Shown piece after piece: positions 4,388 to 26,357 of a stretch of DNA of 40,286 nucleotides. The notes beneath the pieces were generated by a model. It did no database searches. It was not told the origin of the DNA and saw only the letters and a list, made by a program, of their open reading frames with translations. Positions within the stretch are counted from its first letter, which is position 1. Every line of letters begins with the position of its first letter. A program made the translations under genes and the position numbers. The DNA is from a virus (Monodnaviria > Loebvirae > Hofneiviricota > Faserviricetes > Tubulavirales > Inoviridae), in the IMG/VR virus record IMGVR_UViG_2874968258_000009. One strand, 5' to 3'.

Positions 4388-4891
4388 TTATTGATAGTGT
4401 TTTATGTTCAGATAATGCCCGATGACTTTGTCATGCAGCTCCACCGATTTTGAGAACGACAGCGACTTCCGTCCCAGCCGTGCCAGGTGCTGCCTCAGAT
4501 TCAGGTTATGCCGCTCAATTCGCTGCGTATATCGCTTGCTGATTACGTGCAGCTTTCCCTTCAGGCGGGATTCATACAGCGGCCAGCCATCCGTCATCCA
4601 TATCACCACGTCAAAGGGTGACAGCAGGCTCATAAGACGCCCCAGCGTCGCCATAGTGCGTTCACCGAATACGTGCGCAACAACCGTCTTCCGGAGACTG
4701 TCATACGCGTAAAACAGCCAGCGCTGGCGCGATTTAGCCCCGACATAGCCCCACTGTTCGTCCATTTCCGCGCAGACGATGACGTCACTGCCCGGCTGTA
4801 TGCGCGAGGTTACCGACTGCGGCCTGAGTTTTTTAAGTGACGTAAAATCGTGTTGAGGCCAACGCCCATAATGCGTGCAGTTGCCCGGCAT
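4388..4891 (-). CDS. insB: IS1 InsB
   Basis: 167-aa ORF overlapping the insA 3' end, as in IS1 (InsAB' frameshift arrangement). Confidence 0.9.
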
Positions 4892-5085
4892 CCAACGCCA
4901 TTCATGGCCATATCAATGATTTTCTGGTGCGTACCGGGTTGAGAAGCGGTGTAAGTGAACTGCAGTTGCCATGTTTTACGGCAGTGAGAGCAGAGATAGC
5001 GCTGATGTCCGGCAGTGCTTTTGCCGTTACGCACCACCCCGTCAGTAGCTGAACAGGAGGGACAGCTGATAGAAACAGAAGCCAC
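4810..5085 (-). CDS. insA: IS1 InsA
   Basis: 91-aa [46 protein letters not shown]... Confidence 0.9.
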
Positions 5086-5245: not shown

Positions 5246-5749
5246 TTATTGATAGTGTTTTATGTTCAGATAATGCCCGATGACTTTGTCATGCAGCTCC
5301 ACCGATTTTGAGAACGACAGCGACTTCCGTCCCAGCCGTGCCAGGTGCTGCCTCAGATTCAGGTTATGCCGCTTAATTCGCTGCGTATATCGCTTGCTGA
5401 TTACGTGCAGCTTTCCCTTCAGGCGGGATTCATACAGCGGCCAGCCATCCGTCATCCATATCACCACGTCAAAGGGTGACAGCAGGCTCATAAGACGCCC
5501 CAGCGTCGCCATAGTGCGTTCACCGAATACGTGCGCAACAACCGTCTTCCGGAGACTGTCATACGCGTAAAACAGCCAGCGCTGGCGCGATTTAGCCCCG
5601 ACATAGCCCCACTGTTCGTCCATTTCCGCGCAGACGATGACGTCACTGCCCGGCTGTATGCGCGAGGTTACCGACTGCGGCCTGAGTTTTTTAAGTGACG
5701 TAAAATCGTGTTGAGGCCAACGCCCATAATGCGTGCAGTTGCCCGGCAT
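5246..5749 (-). CDS. insB: IS1 InsB
   Basis: 167 aa, one substitution (E to K) relative to the 4388-4891 copy. Confidence 0.9.
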
Positions 5750-5943
5750 CCAACGCCATTCATGGCCATATCAATGATTTTCTGGTGCGTACCGGGTTGG
5801 GAAGCGGTGTAAGTGAACTGCAGTTGCCATGTTTTACGGCAGTGAGAGCAGAGATAGCGCTGATGTCCGGCAGTGCTTTTGCCGTTACGCACCACCCCGT
5901 CAGTAGCTGAACAGGAGGGACAGCTGATAGAAACAGAAGCCAC
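5668..5943 (-). CDS. insA: IS1 InsA
   Basis: Identical to the 4810-5085 product. Confidence 0.9.
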
Positions 5944-7321: not shown

Positions 7322-7349
7322 ATTTAACATAATATACATTATGCGCACC
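7322..7349 (-). other. dif: Chromosomal dif site (XerC/XerD recombination site) forming the left prophage junction (attL)
   Basis: Plus strand ATTTAACATAATATACATTATGCGCACC is the reverse complement of the canonical E. coli dif GGTGCGCATAA-TGTATA-TTATGTTAAAT (28/28). Confidence 0.9.
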
Positions 7350-13421: not shown

Positions 13422-14474
13422 TTAATGCCAGTTACTGGCATGTGAAATACGGTTATAATCGAAAATTAAACCTTTCTCATAAACCCATGATGGAATTTTG
13501 GCTGGTTTGGCTTCAAGAGTACGAACCAACGGAACAACGTTATTAGAATCCGGTGACTCACAATAAAAGTTAATATCTATTCCGAAAGAAAGTAGTTCTT
13601 TACGGTGTCGGTAGAATGTAGGTTTCGGTAACATCTCTTTCATGTTCGCGCCCTGCTTCCACAATAAATATGTAGACTGTATTTTTCTTGGGAGATTAAT
13701 TATTTTTTCATCAGTTAATATGGTATTTTGATTCATTTCTATTCTCCCTACATAGTCAGAGAATAATTTATTGGGCGTCTCAATATTCCAGCTATTACCA
13801 AGCGTAAGATTCAAATCAATTAATTCAGTTGTTCTTAATGTTAATTCAATGCGTAATTTATCTTTTGACCAGTCCAGTAAACCAGCTTTAACGAATTCGT
13901 CTGCCATCTGGTGCCCTTTTTTGCCAGATGTATGCTCATCATATTTTGAATAAAATTTCAGGCTCCAACGACGGGAGTTTTTCCCTAAGTAAACAGTGCC
14001 ACCTTTACCACAGGCGCGACCGTGGCGAGTTTTAGCTTTAAATTCTGCGGCATATAACCATGCGCGGACATTTTCTAATGTTGACAATGAATACATGTAA
14101 TTGATATCGATGCGCGAGATCTTAAATTGCCCTTCCATGACCTGCCGATAGGATGGTAGATCATGAGGAATATGCAGTAATGCCAATATTCTGGCGTAAG
14201 CTGTTAACACCAACCCTTGCAAATCGTCGGAACCTATAACAGAGTGACCTTGCAAAAACTTTGATGGATTACCGTCAATGTAGAGATGTGTTGCCCTACC
14301 TTCACCATCAGATCCAACAGACCTTACTTTCATTGTGGACTCATGCGAACCGCGAACGGTCAACCGTTTTACTGTTTCCCACTCCACTGCACCGTCAGCA
14401 TCGACGCTGACGACACTACCAGCCGGTAACGGTCGGTGTGTGCAAGGCAGGATTCCGGTAAACCAGTCGATCAT
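13422..14474 (-). CDS. Rolling-circle replication initiation protein (pII/RstA-like)
   Basis: 350-aa first gene of the minus-strand operon, divergent from an HTH regulator; length and position match pII/RstA-type initiators (..GGTVYLGKNSRRWSLKFYSKYDE..). Confidence 0.65.
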   Translation of the reverse strand: MIDWFTGILPCTHRPLPAGSVVSVDADGAVEWETVKRLTVRGSHESTMKVRSVGSDGEGRATHLYIDGNPSKFLQGHSVIGSDDLQGLVLTAYARILALLHIPHDLPSYRQVMEGQFKISRIDINYMYSLSTLENVRAWLYAAEFKAKTRHGRACGKGGTVYLGKNSRRWSLKFYSKYDEHTSGKKGHQMADEFVKAGLLDWSKDKLRIELTLRTTELIDLNLTLGNSWNIETPNKLFSDYVGRIEMNQNTILTDEKIINLPRKIQSTYLLWKQGANMKEMLPKPTFYRHRKELLSFGIDINFYCESPDSNNVVPLVRTLEAKPAKIPSWVYEKGLIFDYNRISHASNWH

Positions 14475-14645
14475 AAGTAGTCACACCCATCAAAATATGT
14501 GTCAATAGTCATTTGTGAGCAGATTGAATGGTCACAATGTAATATGCTCAGATCTGACAGTCAATACATTTGCAATGTTTAAATTGTCAGAAATGAGCAT
14601 CAAATCTAACTATTGAAAAACCACTGTTAAGATGGAGCCAAGTAG
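14475..14645. promoter_or_regulatory. Divergent promoter/operator region between the replication operon and the HTH regulator gene
   Basis: AT-rich 171-bp intergenic region containing two direct repeats, GTCAATAGTCATTTG (14501-14515) and GTCAATACATTTG (14560-14572), plus further TGTCA-containing motifs. Confidence 0.5.
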
Positions 14646-15092
14646 ATGGGCAACAATGAGCATGAAGTTATGGCGGACAAACAGAGAGCAGAACGTATCA
14701 AAAAGGTAATTCTGGAACACTCGACTTATGAAGAACTGGCCGAGAAGACTGGCATTAGCGTGAGTACGCTGGTCAGGATAGCGTCCGGCAAAACTGAACC
14801 TAAATTCAGTGACATCATTCAGATAGCTAAAATTACGGGTGCAGACTTAAACACCTTAGCTTATGGCTATGCTCTTGATGTTAAAGAAGAAGCTACCGAG
14901 CGGAAGCTAATCACTTCTGCGGATGGATATACTGATGAAGAAACCACTAACGCACATAATTTCATCGTGTGGAACATCAGGACACTGGAAAAACAAGATA
15001 TTCTGGCACTCGCAAGGCAGGTTTCTGCATTAAGTTCATACACTTACAGTACTAAAATGTTTATGAAAAAAGCGGTGTCTGGAGAAGAGTAA
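14646..15092 (+). CDS. XRE/Cro-C1-type helix-turn-helix transcriptional regulator (candidate phage repressor)
   Basis: 148 aa with an HTH segment (YEELAEKTGISVSTLVRIASGKTEPKFSDIIQIAKITGADLNTLAYG); divergently oriented to the replication gene. Confidence 0.7.
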   Translation: MGNNEHEVMADKQRAERIKKVILEHSTYEELAEKTGISVSTLVRIASGKTEPKFSDIIQIAKITGADLNTLAYGYALDVKEEATERKLITSADGYTDEETTNAHNFIVWNIRTLEKQDILALARQVSALSSYTYSTKMFMKKAVSGEE

Positions 15093-15121
15093 AAGGATTA
15101 ACAGTCTCAGGAATGAGACAA

Positions 15122-15156
15122 ACGTGCAGTATTACCAACACTGCACGTTCTTTATT
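15122..15156 (+). terminator. Rho-independent terminator after the regulator gene
   Basis: Hairpin ACGTGCAGT-attaccaaca-CTGCACGT followed by TCTTTATT. Copies at +9504 and +19007. Confidence 0.6.
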
Positions 15157-15191
15157 GTGCGAATTCTGAACAGTAAAAAAGGATCAAAAGG

Positions 15192-15614
15192 ATGAGTAGA
15201 AATAACGAAACAAGCGGCGTTGAACTGGTTGTCGTCGGCGTATTTGCTTTCTGTCTGGCAGTTGTTGCCTGGCTAATGAAAACTTTCGATGTTGAATGGC
15301 AAACAGCACTGGAAACTGCGCCTGGCCTGATAGTCTGGCTGCTTGTTGTTGGGGCGGGGATCTTTTTCGGGATCAAAATGGAAACAGGCCTTGTTCGCTG
15401 GGGTGCTCCACTGGCGATCGCCCTTCTGATTCCGGTATTCAAACCAATTCTTAAGGAAGCTGCCGGAGTACGTGAAATGGGTGGGTTGGTTTTCGATGAT
15501 ATGGTTTCGTGGTACGGAACTGGCTGGGGAATGTCGTTAATGTTTTTCGGTATTCTTATCGTCGGATACGGTCTGCTTTATTGGTGGCACAGAAGAAACT
15601 CTTATTATTGGTAA
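15192..15614 (+). CDS. Small integral membrane protein (about 4 predicted TM helices), function unknown
   Basis: 140 aa with hydrophobic segments LVVVGVFAFCLAVVAWL, LIVWLLVVGAGIFFGI, APLAIALLIPVF and MSLMFFGILIVGYGLLYWW; Shine-Dalgarno AAGGA upstream. Confidence 0.6.
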   Translation: MSRNNETSGVELVVVGVFAFCLAVVAWLMKTFDVEWQTALETAPGLIVWLLVVGAGIFFGIKMETGLVRWGAPLAIALLIPVFKPILKEAAGVREMGGLVFDDMVSWYGTGWGMSLMFFGILIVGYGLLYWWHRRNSYYW

Positions 15615-15681
15615 GCAATTTTGCTCCATATATCAGCGGTGAAGTTCAGAGGTGGTTATTTTTTAGTCTTGAGGAAAGATA

Positions 15682-16476
15682 ATGAAGCCAGAAAAAGCTA
15701 TCGAGATATTAAAAAGACAACGGGAGCAAATCCCAGCAATACAAAATGAACGAAGGAGTACAGGAAATAACCCAAGTTTTAACTTATGGCAAAGAAACAC
15801 TAAGACCGCCATATCAAAAATATTTGGTGAAGAGTCAGATCACAAAAAAGAATTTGGCTCAATTCGATACTCTTTAATGGCATTTGTTGGTGATACACCA
15901 GATTATGTTTTCGATAACGCATTTTGTAGTGGTTTAGATGAAGCACATTCTCTTCTTACGTCTATGATTGCTGAGATTGAAGAATATGGAATTGACGGAA
16001 ATTTCATAGAGACAAAAAATGATCCCGTAGCTCTTGTTGAACTAATTTGCCATCAATTTCATAAGGTTGCAAGACAGCTACAGCAACGACACGATAATAG
16101 ACAAACCATTGAAATAAATGACGAATATGACGTTCAGGATTTATTTCATGCTCTTTTGAAGATTCATTTCGAGGATGTCAGACCAGAAGAATATACGCCA
16201 AGCTATGCAGGATCTTCAACACGAGTTGACTTCTTGTTAAAGAATGAAAAAATCATTATCGAGTTAAAGAAAACGAGAAAAAATCTCAAGCAAAAAGAAG
16301 TTGGTGAGCAATTAATTGTTGATATAGCTCATTATCAAACGCATCCTGATTGCGAAACTTTAGTGTGTTTTGTATATGACCCTGAAGGTAGAATTGCCAA
16401 TCCAATTGGTGTGGAGAATGACCTTGAGCGTTGTACAAATTCAATTTCGGTAAAAGTAATAATCTCACCAAAATAA
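15682..16476 (+). CDS. Hypothetical protein with a PD-(D/E)xK-like nuclease motif (inferred from motif only)
   Basis: 264 aa. C-terminal half has acidic residues (DEYDVQD) followed by RVDFLLKNEKIIIELKK, i.e. a D ... E-x-K spacing as in PD-(D/E)xK folds; Shine-Dalgarno GAGGAAAG upstream. Confidence 0.55.
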   Translation: MKPEKAIEILKRQREQIPAIQNERRSTGNNPSFNLWQRNTKTAISKIFGEESDHKKEFGSIRYSLMAFVGDTPDYVFDNAFCSGLDEAHSLLTSMIAEIEEYGIDGNFIETKNDPVALVELICHQFHKVARQLQQRHDNRQTIEINDEYDVQDLFHALLKIHFEDVRPEEYTPSYAGSSTRVDFLLKNEKIIIELKKTRKNLKQKEVGEQLIVDIAHYQTHPDCETLVCFVYDPEGRIANPIGVENDLERCTNSISVKVIISPK

Positions 16477-16486
16477 AAGGACATAT

Positions 16487-16753
16487 ATGGCTACTGTAGA
16501 TGATGTTGCACAATGGATGAAATCAGAGCTGGAAAACACAAACTGGCTATATCAAGAAACTGTTGTATATAAAATAAAAGAGTTATTTGGCGATACTTTC
16601 GTATATTTGAATGCTAATGGAAATTTATCCATTGATAAAAAAGTATTAGCGAAGTTTAGAAAGCTAACTAATGACACGGTTATATGGGAGAGAGGTGAAA
16701 AAGCATGGCGAAAAAGACAAGGTTATGATGCCCCTGGTCGACAGCAGGACTAA
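16487..16753 (+). CDS. Hypothetical small protein, tightly coupled to the upstream 264-aa gene
   Basis: 88-aa ORF starting 11 nt after the upstream stop, with Shine-Dalgarno AAGGA; basic C-terminus. Confidence 0.5.
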   Translation: MATVDDVAQWMKSELENTNWLYQETVVYKIKELFGDTFVYLNANGNLSIDKKVLAKFRKLTNDTVIWERGEKAWRKRQGYDAPGRQQD

Positions 16754-16787
16754 ATAATTGGTTCGCACAATGACGTTATGCTAAAGA

Positions 16788-16824
16788 GGCCGCTGCGGGA
16801 TTCGATTTTCGCAGCGGCCTTTTC
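16788..16824 (+). terminator. Rho-independent terminator adjacent to the att site
   Basis: GGCCGCTGCG-loop-CGCAGCGGCC followed by TTTTC. Copies at +9504 and +19007. Confidence 0.6.
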
Positions 16825-16853
16825 AACATAACGAGTCGTACATTATGCGCACC
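16825..16853 (-). other. Phage attP-type XerCD site at the copy1/copy2 junction
   Basis: Minus-strand reading GGTGCGCATAA-TGTACGACTCG-TTATGTTGAAA: perfect XerC arm, divergent and longer central region, XerD-like arm 9/11. Confidence 0.6.
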
Positions 16854-16993
16854 AATGGTAAGGATGGCAGAATCTGGCGGGAATCGTTGACACTGGCCGT
16901 CAACTGGCTACTATCGACAGTGATTCAAAATCATCCGTTTCTCCAAACGAATCAGAATCAAATGTCTGTCAGCAGTAAGTGAACGGCCTGACC

Positions 16994-17242
16994 TCACCAA
17001 TCAGGCCTGTTCATCCAGTTAGTTGGTAAATCTGTACCTGATACACGAGAATCAAACACCACTTCTTCAGTGCCATCACCATGATGCCGGATAATCTGGT
17101 AACCGGATTGCGGGTTCTGGCTCTCAGCTTCATAAGCAGCCCGGAATGCTGGATCTTTGAGAAGCATCACTTTCAGCTCCTGATGTGTCATGAATTTTTC
17201 CATGATAAGCCCCGATGAATGCTGCCGCGCCGAATCAGCCAT
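16994..17242 (-). CDS. Hypothetical small protein (copy 2)
   Basis: Identical to the 7490-7738 product. Confidence 0.4.
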   Translation of the reverse strand: MADSARQHSSGLIMEKFMTHQELKVMLLKDPAFRAAYEAESQNPQSGYQIIRHHGDGTEEVVFDSRVSGTDLPTNWMNRPDW

Positions 17243-17724
17243 AACGCTGAAAATGGAAACTGTACGGCTTGGCCAACCCCGGACAGCAACAAAACAAGTT
17301 TTGTCACTGACCGGCGTTATCTTTCAAAACAGACAGTTAACGATTTTTTGTCTGGTGTTTATGCGTGAAATTTCGTGCGTACGAAATTCACCACCAATAA
17401 ACAAACGGACGATGACTGACCGGAAAAGCAATGCCGTCAGCATCATGACCACGCATTACCTGATTGAGAAGACTTCTGACTTCACGGCGCTCAGGCCTGG
17501 TCATCATCATATTGCGATACCAGGACGGCGATTTATCAAACCATCTGGCACAACTGGCAAAATGTGAACCTACACGACGATAAGACTTAAGGCGGCCACC
17601 GGGAAGTCGGTCACGCGCCTTATTTTTTACAGACATAATAAATCCTCTAAGTAACTGAATACCTAGAAGATGTCGTACTGTTCATACCCCATAAAAGTTA
17701 ACGCCATAATAAAAATCCATACAA

Positions 17725-25118: not shown

Positions 25119-25185
25119 GCAATTTTGCTCCATATATCAGCGGTGAAGTTCAGAGGTGGTTATTTTTTAGTCTTGAGGAAAGATA

Positions 25186-25980
25186 ATGAAGCCAGAAAAA
25201 GCTATCGAGATATTAAAAAGACAACGGGAGCAAATCCCAGCAATACAAAATGAACGAAGGAGTACAGGAAATAACCCAAGTTTTAACTTATGGCAAAGAA
25301 ACACTAAGACCGCCATATCAAAAATATTTGGTGAAGAGTCAGATCACAAAAAAGAATTTGGCTCAATTCGATACTCTTTAATGGCATTTGTTGGTGATAC
25401 ACCAGATTATGTTTTCGATAACGCATTTTGTAGTGGTTTAGATGAAGCACATTCTCTTCTTACGTCTATGATTGCTGAGATTGAAGAATATGGAATTGAC
25501 GGAAATTTCATAGAGACAAAAAATGATCCCGTAGCTCTTGTTGAACTAATTTGCCATCAATTTCATAAGGTTGCAAGACAGCTACAGCAACGACACGATA
25601 ATAGACAAACCATTGAAATAAATGACGAATATGACGTTCAGGATTTATTTCATGCTCTTTTGAAGATTCATTTCGAGGATGTCAGACCAGAAGAATATAC
25701 GCCAAGCTATGCAGGATCTTCAACACGAGTTGACTTCTTGTTAAAGAATGAAAAAATCATTATCGAGTTAAAGAAAACGAGAAAAAATCTCAAGCAAAAA
25801 GAAGTTGGTGAGCAATTAATTGTTGATATAGCTCATTATCAAACGCATCCTGATTGCGAAACTTTAGTGTGTTTTGTATATGACCCTGAAGGTAGAATTG
25901 CCAATCCAATTGGTGTGGAGAATGACCTTGAGCGTTGTACAAATTCAATTTCGGTAAAAGTAATAATCTCACCAAAATAA
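25186..25980 (+). CDS. PD-(D/E)xK-like hypothetical protein, copy 2
   Basis: Identical to the 15682-16476 product. Confidence 0.55.
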   Translation: MKPEKAIEILKRQREQIPAIQNERRSTGNNPSFNLWQRNTKTAISKIFGEESDHKKEFGSIRYSLMAFVGDTPDYVFDNAFCSGLDEAHSLLTSMIAEIEEYGIDGNFIETKNDPVALVELICHQFHKVARQLQQRHDNRQTIEINDEYDVQDLFHALLKIHFEDVRPEEYTPSYAGSSTRVDFLLKNEKIIIELKKTRKNLKQKEVGEQLIVDIAHYQTHPDCETLVCFVYDPEGRIANPIGVENDLERCTNSISVKVIISPK

Positions 25981-25990
25981 AAGGACATAT

Positions 25991-26257
25991 ATGGCTACTG
26001 TAGATGATGTTGCACAATGGATGAAATCAGAGCTGGAAAACACAAACTGGCTATATCAAGAAACTGTTGTATATAAAATAAAAGAGTTATTTGGCGATAC
26101 TTTCGTATATTTGAATGCTAATGGAAATTTATCCATTGATAAAAAAGTATTAGCGAAGTTTAGAAAGCTAACTAATGACACGGTTATATGGGAGAGAGGT
26201 GAAAAAGCATGGCGAAAAAGACAAGGTTATGATGCCCCTGGTCGACAGCAGGACTAA
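25991..26257 (+). CDS. Hypothetical 88-aa protein, copy 2
   Basis: Identical to the 16487-16753 product. Confidence 0.5.
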   Translation: MATVDDVAQWMKSELENTNWLYQETVVYKIKELFGDTFVYLNANGNLSIDKKVLAKFRKLTNDTVIWERGEKAWRKRQGYDAPGRQQD

Positions 26258-26328
26258 ATAATTGGTTCGCACAATGACGTTATGCTAAAGAGGCCGCTGC
26301 GGGATTCGATTTTCGCAGCGGCCTTTTC

Positions 26329-26357
26329 AACATAACGAGTCGTACATTATGCGCACC
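26329..26357 (-). other. Phage attP-type XerCD site at the copy2/copy3 junction
   Basis: Same sequence as the 16825-16853 site. Confidence 0.6.

Follow-up and report, generated by a model that had tools for sequence, protein, structure and literature searches.

A swappable cassette beside the attachment site of a triplicated CUS-1/YpfPhi-type prophage carries a candidate defence nuclease

CUS-1 and YpfPhi are filamentous prophages associated with high-virulence Escherichia coli K1 and pandemic Yersinia pestis. Their accessory-region genes were described as lacking homologues and having no known function (Derbise & Carniel 2014, PMC4266046), and in the study of UPPhi the accessory regions at the same position were found to be variable (Shapiro & Turner 2020, PMC7307601). 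The region has been seen in the literature before and was never interpreted. Here, we analyzed such an accessory end in IMG/VR record IMGVR_UViG_2874968258_000009, a stretch of 40,286 nucleotides from an E. coli chromosome that is called the window below. The window holds a 9504-bp unit present three times in head-to-tail tandem, with a period of 9504/9503 bp. The repeated unit is a CUS-1/YpfPhi-type filamentous (inovirus) prophage of 9.5 kb. It shares with CUS-1, YpfPhi and UPPhi the backbone, integration at dif, tandem arrays and an accessory region at the same end (orf1 and orf1a in CUS-1). In contrast to the papers on these phages (Gonzalez 2002, PMC4266046, PMC7307601), which gave neither homologues nor a function, families were assigned here and the boundaries of the cargo were mapped. 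From sequence comparisons we lean towards reading one of the cargo products, a protein of 264 amino acids (aa), as a candidate phage-borne defence or abortive-infection nuclease carried as a moron.

A characterised relative of this protein is bAgaN of the long-B prokaryotic Argonaute (pAgo) system BPAN. It is a dimeric DNase that depends on Mn, cuts without sequence specificity and breaks down genomic DNA during abortive infection (Song et al. 2023, PMC10620215). Like the 264-aa protein, bAgaN is composed of a helical N-terminal part followed by a homologous PD-(D/E)xK domain. However, it is 390 aa long, the N-terminal domains differ, and the PADLOC match is confined to the restriction endonuclease (REase) part (positions 216-375 of 378). 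No pAgo was found in the 9.5-kb unit, where the neighbours of the nuclease gene are a helix-turn-helix (HTH) gene, a gene for a 140-aa protein, a DUF6953 gene and inovirus genes. With no Argonaute nearby and an N-terminal domain unlike that of bAgaN, activation of the 264-aa protein must be pAgo-independent. In the legend of Fig. S8 of Rousset et al. 2023 (bioRxiv 10.1101/2023.01.24.525353), the nuclease family PF18742 appears as an alternative effector of Detocs. In these REase variants, the toxic step at the end of an anti-phage pathway falls to the same Pfam domain. Detocs is, in turn, a three-gene phosphorelay, and none of its genes (DtcA, DtcB, DtcC) accompanies the 264-aa protein. Since the partner genes of both systems are missing, the protein lies outside BPAN and Detocs and has only the effector domain in common with them. 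PDC-S35, a single-gene candidate of PADLOC v2, shares with it the N-terminal domain of about 105 residues, the size of about 264 aa and the layout of sensor plus effector in one polypeptide. The effector of PDC-S35 is a CAP12/Pycsar-type TIR domain, whereas that of the 264-aa protein is a PF18742 nuclease. As regards the genomic setting, the P2/P4 hotspots and BstA are likewise variable, sharply bounded slots of temperate elements with alternative defence or Abi genes. They differ in that the carrier here is a 9.5-kb single-stranded DNA (ssDNA) filamentous phage, which relies on XerCD of the host for integration and whose slot borders on the Xer attachment hairpin.

The locus consists of the following features, numbered along the window:
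7322-35859: three-copy filamentous prophage array, integrated at dif
14646-15092, plus strand: repressor-like HTH gene (Cro/CI, RstR-like), 148 aa, the first gene of the plus-strand unit; backbone, not cargo
15192-15614, plus strand: gene for a predicted membrane protein of 140 aa (phrog_4174), a semi-conserved phage module
15615-16756, plus strand: 1.14-kb cassette of variable cargo, comprising the genes for the nuclease and the DUF6953 protein and delimited by blastn breakpoints
25119-26260 and 34622-35763, plus strand: further copies of the cassette
15682-16476, plus strand: gene for the two-domain 264-aa protein (predicted N-terminal four-helix bundle, residues 1-107; PF18742 domain, residues 118-264)
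25186-25980 and 34689-35483, plus strand: further copies of the 264-aa gene
16487-16753, plus strand: gene for an 88-aa DUF6953 protein (Pfam PF22266)
25991-26257 and 35494-35760, plus strand: further copies of the DUF6953 gene
16760-16853, unstranded: attP-like region with two inverted dif-like sites, recognised from sequence and ssDNA fold

An earlier note on this DNA had described three plus-strand open reading frames (ORFs) of 140, 264 and 88 aa, lying in a moron position between the HTH gene and the att site, as a single cargo block present at threefold gene dosage. The ORFs and their position were as described. The ORFs are real genes with conserved homologues (49, 3617 and 91 clusters), and the 1562-bp block occurs in three base-identical copies starting at 15192, 24696 and 34199, which gives the threefold dosage. 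The unity of the block did not hold. The slot edges were mapped by blastn against variant prophages that share the flanks (loci L019-L022, four variants with different cargo). Homology running from the repressor gene to the 140-aa gene ended at 15614, the last base of the stop codon, and restarted at 16754-16757, immediately past the end of the 88-aa gene with its stop codon. This leaves the 264-aa and 88-aa genes alone as cargo, and 15615-16756 is a sharply bounded, swappable cassette abutting attP. The GC content of the cassette genes is about 0.35-0.36, compared with 0.42-0.48 in the neighbouring backbone genes.

Other genes were found in the same slot of related prophages. In FEX669 it holds a 309-aa AbiJ_NTD4+DUF7014 protein (STM4504/CBY_0614 family, similar to PADLOC PDC-S32), in M9682-C1 two hypothetical proteins of 155 and 123 aa, in AF22 an ECs_2282 zinc-ribbon protein with a 114-aa protein, and in 85.0412 three different small proteins. 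A more divergent inovirus carries MltR and DUF2971 there. The slot thus has the marks of an inovirus accessory slot: its content varies between conserved flanks, it lies beside attP, and it belongs to neither the replication nor the morphogenesis module. The variability of the accessory region was already known, as was the nuclease fold through database annotation. What is new here is that the limits of the cassette are mapped, that the 140-aa membrane protein is shown to lie outside the cargo, and that other Abi-like genes occupy the same attP-proximal slot. The CUS-1 virulence gene puvA was also considered as a member of the block and was rejected, as the YpfPhi review (PMC4266046) gives its product as a receptor-binding virion protein, encoded outside the accessory region.

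The C-terminal part of the 264-aa protein (residues 118-264) matched Pfam PF18742 REase_DpnII-MboI with 198.1 bits (cutoff 27) and E=6.9e-59 over profile positions 2-150 of 150. RefSeq labels the protein as a "PD-(D/E)XK nuclease domain-containing protein". Most homologues, which come from Proteobacteria, Bacteroidota and Firmicutes, have a length of about 262 aa and share 52-57% identity. In an alignment of 36 homologues, residues E148, D150, D153, R181, D183, K196 and K197 were invariant, and E194 was at least 90% conserved. The catalytic candidates are E148/D150/D153, D183, E194 and K196, arranged as an E/D...D...ExK motif. The predicted fold contains the alpha/beta core of restriction endonucleases. 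These data bear out the restriction-endonuclease-like fold and the D...ExK arrangement proposed in the earlier note, and the PD-(D/E)xK fold and the family assignments are near certain. The sole solved relative found by sequence was EcbAgaN (PDB 23wq), with E=0.26 in pairwise comparison and 3.5e-4 with the family profile. The alignment spans the catalytic motif and matches the D-EVK of EcbAgaN. The Argonaute-associated PADLOC model Aga_Helical-REase (PDLC02411) also matched the protein (E=1.3e-34).

The N-terminal domain gave a link to a different effector. Residues 1-107, predicted to form a four-helix bundle, matched positions 1-103 of 264 of PDC-S35 (E=3.6e-11). Among 1.84 billion representative proteins searched with residues 1-110, 458 matched, and a Pfam scan of the top 149 of them identified 45 with CAP12/Pycsar-type TIR, 7 with other TIR and 20 with PF18742. 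The TIR-bearing matches were full-length PDC-S35 proteins at about 1e-90, and one carried a SpbK-type TIR. In the 264-aa protein itself no TIR match was found, its C-terminal half being PF18742. The same module of about 105 residues is thus fused, at the same position and with the same protein size, to two unrelated toxic effector domains. Fusion to either TIR or PF18742 argues that the N-terminal domain regulates the effector and does not recognise a DNA sequence. The layout of these fusions looks like that typical of single-protein sensor-effector defence genes, here in an effector-swapped form. This effector swap, which ties the 264-aa family to PDC-S35, is new.

The 88-aa protein matched Pfam PF22266 DUF6953 with 98.9 bits (cutoff 27) and E=1.8e-28, and RefSeq labels it as a "DUF6953 family protein". 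Two of the three proteins thus belong to Pfam families and carry RefSeq labels, which corrects the earlier statement that none could be placed in a named family; NCBIfam has no family for any of the three. DUF6953 proteins end in a conserved basic W/R-rich tail, WERGxKxWRKR...PGRQQ. The predicted fold has an H-S-H-H-S-S topology and is structurally similar to known winged-helix proteins, so the protein was modelled as a putative winged-helix DNA-binding protein. This prediction is also new. Literature searches on DUF6953, PDC-S35 and DpnII-MboI returned nothing about function.

The remaining member of the block belongs to the phage. Hydropathy analysis of the 140-aa protein gave three strong hydrophobic segments and a fourth, marginal one, in agreement with its earlier description as a membrane protein with four transmembrane segments. 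No match was found in Pfam, NCBIfam or PADLOC, and phrog_4174 is its only family. Its homologues are exclusively from Enterobacterales. The protein is 98-99% identical across CUS-type prophages with different cargos, and it is also kept in a UPPhi-like phage whose pII is merely 86% identical. Because it is conserved in variants with different cargo, the gene lies outside the cargo unit, and the product is, as judged by its conservation, a lineage-specific phage membrane protein. A role of this putative membrane protein in superinfection exclusion would be a guess. The upstream neighbours of the nuclease gene in Pectobacterium and Citrobacter were considered as membrane proteins of the same kind and rejected, as they show no resemblance to it. 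The HTH protein matched Pfam HTH_3 (E=1.6e-9) and the transcriptional regulator phrog_3557 (E=4e-74), and its gene is 100% conserved in variants carrying other cargo.

Of 5426 complete E. coli genomes, 24 carry the cassette, at 36 places, all of them chromosomal and at least 99.6% identical. The backbone pair of HTH and 140-aa genes was present in 97 E. coli genomes, about three quarters of which lack the nuclease cassette. Other strains contained one to three cassette copies and sometimes more backbone copies, a hint of mixed-cargo arrays. An IncFIB/IncHI1B plasmid of Klebsiella pneumoniae (NZ_CP132684.1) carries two tandem copies of the same phage with a cassette 99.8% identical, which points to transfer between genera and insertion at a site on the plasmid. 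Outside this phage, the nuclease homologues usually stand alone, and their neighbourhoods are of a mobile or defence-like character. The Magnetospirillum homologue adjoins an insertion sequence (IS) element and ParDE, that of Riemerella adjoins PemK and DUF2971, that of Paenibacillus overlaps a DUF6710 gene and is followed by Mrr-nSTAND, and that of Citrobacter lies inside a tailed prophage. Homologues were also present in 28 IMG/VR viral contigs, mostly of 30-110 kb. Megablast and tblastn searches against 50,697 GenBank phage records returned nothing for the block, the 140-aa membrane protein or the 264-aa nuclease, so no named phage can be cited as a carrier.

The cassette is followed immediately by the attachment site, and the signals around it are these:
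16760-16786: attP arm A, GGTTCGCACAA...
16826-16853, minus strand: attP arm B, GGTGCGCATAATGTACG...
16788-16823, plus strand: GC-rich hairpin with a 10-bp core stem, then TTTT (RNA fold pairs 16784-16823; -30 kcal/mol, z=-6.3)
16759-16830, 26263-26334 and 35766-35837: flank of about 72 bp right after each cassette copy (dif-like arm A and GC hairpin)
15122-15156, plus strand: hairpin with a 9-bp stem and a 9-nt loop, then a T-rich tract (RNA fold -13.8 kcal/mol, z=-3.1)

The two inverted dif-like sites lie directly after the stop codon of the 88-aa gene and flank the GC-rich hairpin. Folded as ssDNA, the 107-nt attP region gave a long imperfect hairpin with paired arms (-29.1 kcal/mol, z=-6.7). 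It has the form of a CTXPhi-style attP for XerCD integration. The GC-rich hairpin nested in it probably terminates transcription of the plus-strand unit. The weaker hairpin between the HTH and membrane-protein genes may be an attenuating terminator, as its modelled fold suggests; segment 15091-15163 is conserved even in a variant without the 140-aa gene. An Rfam scan of 14300-17400 returned only sub-threshold noise on the attP hairpin. In the 67 bp that precede the nuclease gene, a simple scan for promoters gave no convincing candidate, and expression of this gene by read-through from upstream was assumed. The nuclease and DUF6953 genes do not overlap. They are separated by a 10-nt gap, and the second has its own AAGGA Shine-Dalgarno sequence, so the translational coupling claimed earlier was an overstatement. 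From their arrangement, co-transcription of the two genes is likely.

The flank of about 72 bp on the 3' side of the cassette was about 93% identical to approximately 500 places on E. coli plasmids. On one IncF plasmid it stands directly 3' of the stop codon of an STM4504/CBY_0614 (AbiJ-like) gene, which is preceded by an ISNCY transposase gene and is 60% identical to the cargo of a sister prophage. At the chromosomal dif/hipA locus of another strain, the flank lies 3' of a SIR2 gene, again preceded by an ISNCY transposase gene. This suggests that a shared Xer-site/hairpin flank travels with defence-like genes.

The plus-strand unit leads from a repressor-like HTH gene through a conserved gene for a 140-aa membrane protein to a hot-swappable cargo slot abutting attP. 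We propose that the 264-aa product is a self-contained sensor-effector, with a PDC-S35-type N-terminal module and a bAgaN-type PF18742 DNase domain. In the lysogen, the N-terminal domain would hold the nuclease inactive, and we infer that this autoinhibition explains why three constitutive copies are tolerated. An invader or infecting phage sensed by the N-terminal domain would then license metal-dependent DNA cleavage. Cleavage would either destroy the invader DNA or kill the cell in abortive infection, and in both cases the lysogen population, hence the prophage, would be protected. For the DUF6953 protein, local regulation or accessory DNA binding would be the most likely role, in preference to that of an antitoxin. 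The N-terminal domain shared with TIR-bearing PDC-S35 proteins, the standalone homologues in mobile or defence-like contexts, the AbiJ-like and DUF2971 genes in sister slots, the SIR2 gene at dif with its identical type of 3' flank, and the low GC content of the cassette support the defence reading. The resemblance to a defence module noted earlier is thus retained for the nuclease domain, found in bAgaN and as a Detocs effector, and for the PDC-S35 N-terminal domain; it is lost for the membrane protein and the small partner as parts of one unit.

Several points weigh against this reading. Experimental support for defence is absent both for the 264-aa family and for PDC-S35, and the latter is only a computational candidate for which a literature search found no published validation. 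The PADLOC comparison proposed in the earlier note did return the Aga_Helical-REase and PDC-S35 models; these are matches at the level of domains only. Foldseek matches of the full 264-aa model were not significant. The contexts of homologues are anecdotal, with about 10 loci with gene calls and no statistical defence-island enrichment. Homologues are absent from the GenBank phage records, which leaves no described phage by which to judge the phage-borne behaviour of the nuclease family. Finally, the literature ties CUS-1 and YpfPhi to virulence or fitness rather than to phage resistance (PMC4266046).

The closeness of the two cassette genes raises the question of a toxin-antitoxin or addiction module, in which the 264-aa nuclease would be the toxin and the DUF6953 protein a DNA-binding antitoxin, and which would stabilise the array or abort infection on loss of the antitoxin. 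The genes form a tight co-oriented pair with a gap of only 10 nt, many antitoxins bind DNA, as the small predicted winged-helix protein beside the nuclease would, and accessory toxin-antitoxin systems of inoviruses are mentioned in PMC12328805. A cassette remnant 68% identical to ours was found in Morganella morganii (L011/L012, 7600-8267), where the C-terminal half of the nuclease is a stop-riddled pseudogene while DUF6953 is intact with 76% amino-acid identity, a state also seen with orphan antitoxins. Intact DUF6953 beside a decayed nuclease implies independent selection on DUF6953; it keeps the toxin-antitoxin reading alive and does not establish such a pair. The distribution of the two families speaks against it. 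A tblastn search over fetched flanks of up to 9 kb found DUF6953 beside none of about 35 nuclease loci outside the phage, including the 85% identical copy of Pectobacterium polaris, which stands alone. In metagenomic contigs DUF6953 follows unrelated genes, DUF2158 or GDPD; Pfam scans of the genes flanking distant DUF6953 copies gave nothing. The cluster counts are likewise unequal (3617 for the nuclease vs 91 for DUF6953), and the nuclease has a regulatory N-terminal domain of its own, common to single-gene TIR effectors. DUF6953 is therefore not an obligate partner of the nuclease, the role of dedicated partner or immunity protein given to it in the earlier note does not hold, and a toxin-antitoxin pair is unlikely.

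The same N-terminal domain bears on the view of the protein as a solitary type II REase of the DpnII/MboI kind, which would cut unmethylated GATC in incoming DNA while host Dam methylation protects self. E. coli is Dam-positive, no methyltransferase would be needed in the cassette, and the Pfam family is named REase_DpnII-MboI. In one phage unit (7335-16838, 9504 bp) GATC was observed 19 times vs about 37 expected from length alone, a weak sign of avoidance. However, PF18742 was the only DpnII-family match at E<=1 and covers only a catalytic core of 150 residues, the phage unit has no annotated methyltransferase such as would accompany a DpnII/MboI restriction-modification enzyme, and Alphaproteobacteria, Bacteroidota and Paenibacillus, in which Dam is not general, also have close homologues of full length. 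TIR NADases, which play no part in DNA recognition, have the same N-terminal domain, and the characterised relative bAgaN is sequence-non-specific (PMC10620215). We regard such a solitary enzyme as very unlikely. Another view joins the membrane protein, the nuclease and DUF6953 in one unit that would block related filamentous phages or serve the inovirus life cycle through replicative-form processing or Xer-site handling. All three genes point the same way behind the repressor, within a lysogeny-expressed unit, the membrane protein is confined to the inovirus lineage in Enterobacterales, and the cassette borders immediately on attP. Exclusion factors of inoviruses are known among their small membrane proteins, as in Pf phages. 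Nevertheless, prophages with wholly different cargo retain the membrane protein, and the content of the slot changes freely, so that the three genes do not form one co-adapted set. As about three quarters of the backbone genomes lack the cassette, the nuclease does not serve a life-cycle function, and its family occurs mostly in non-inovirus contexts. This joint unit is quite improbable, and the reading as a candidate defence or abortive-infection nuclease remains the one that we prefer.

If the candidate defence nuclease is as we propose, the cassette gives a concrete, testable function to accessory ends that have stood for 20 years as "no homologues, unknown function" in CUS-1 and YpfPhi. 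The idea of prophage defence hotspots also comes to include very small ssDNA phages whose integration depends on Xer recombination of the host. The effector-swapped family, with one N-terminal domain and either TIR or REase, is nominated as one in which the trigger-sensing module can be separated from the effector for study. A more far-reaching picture, which we put forward tentatively and with more doubt than belief, is that CUSPhi/UPPhi-type phages keep, right beside their Xer attachment hairpin, a dedicated slot for trading small single-gene defence cassettes (helical-domain-REase, AbiJ-like, SIR2, DUF2971) with IncF plasmids, ISNCY-linked dif islands and one another, by means of a "dif-like arm + hairpin" handle of 75-100 bp. 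The 264-aa protein would then be a new and functional abortive-infection nuclease in a single polypeptide, with a portable phage-sensor bundle that TIR effectors also use.

The junctions of the array agree with its mode of insertion. On the left, an exact chromosomal dif site (GGTGCGCATAATGTATATTATGTTAAAT) was found at 7322-7349, and on the right, near 35859, there is a degenerate hybrid site followed by hipA. The tandem prophage copies were inserted via Xer recombination at dif. In RefSeq, a 100% identical locus is annotated with the pII/X replication protein, an ssDNA-binding protein, Zot-like pI and a secretin, and its flank is hipBA. The other features noted in the window are as follows:
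16994-17242 and 17388-17636, minus strand: two 82-aa ORFs just past attP, without a Pfam family and conserved in variants
36112-37830, minus strand: HipA_C-containing ORF, 572 aa from a TTG start
4388-5085, 5246-5943 and 37932-38629: IS1 copies (InsA and InsB ORFs) flanking the prophage array

By position, the two 82-aa ORFs match YPO2280a/YPO2281, the other accessory end of the phage. The 572-aa HipA_C ORF, compared with the 440-aa hipA annotated in a related strain, is probably a mechanical extension upstream of the true start. The two left-side IS1 copies are 858 bp apart and adjoin IS3-family-like rve integrase ORFs and a truncated PapD-like chaperone gene.

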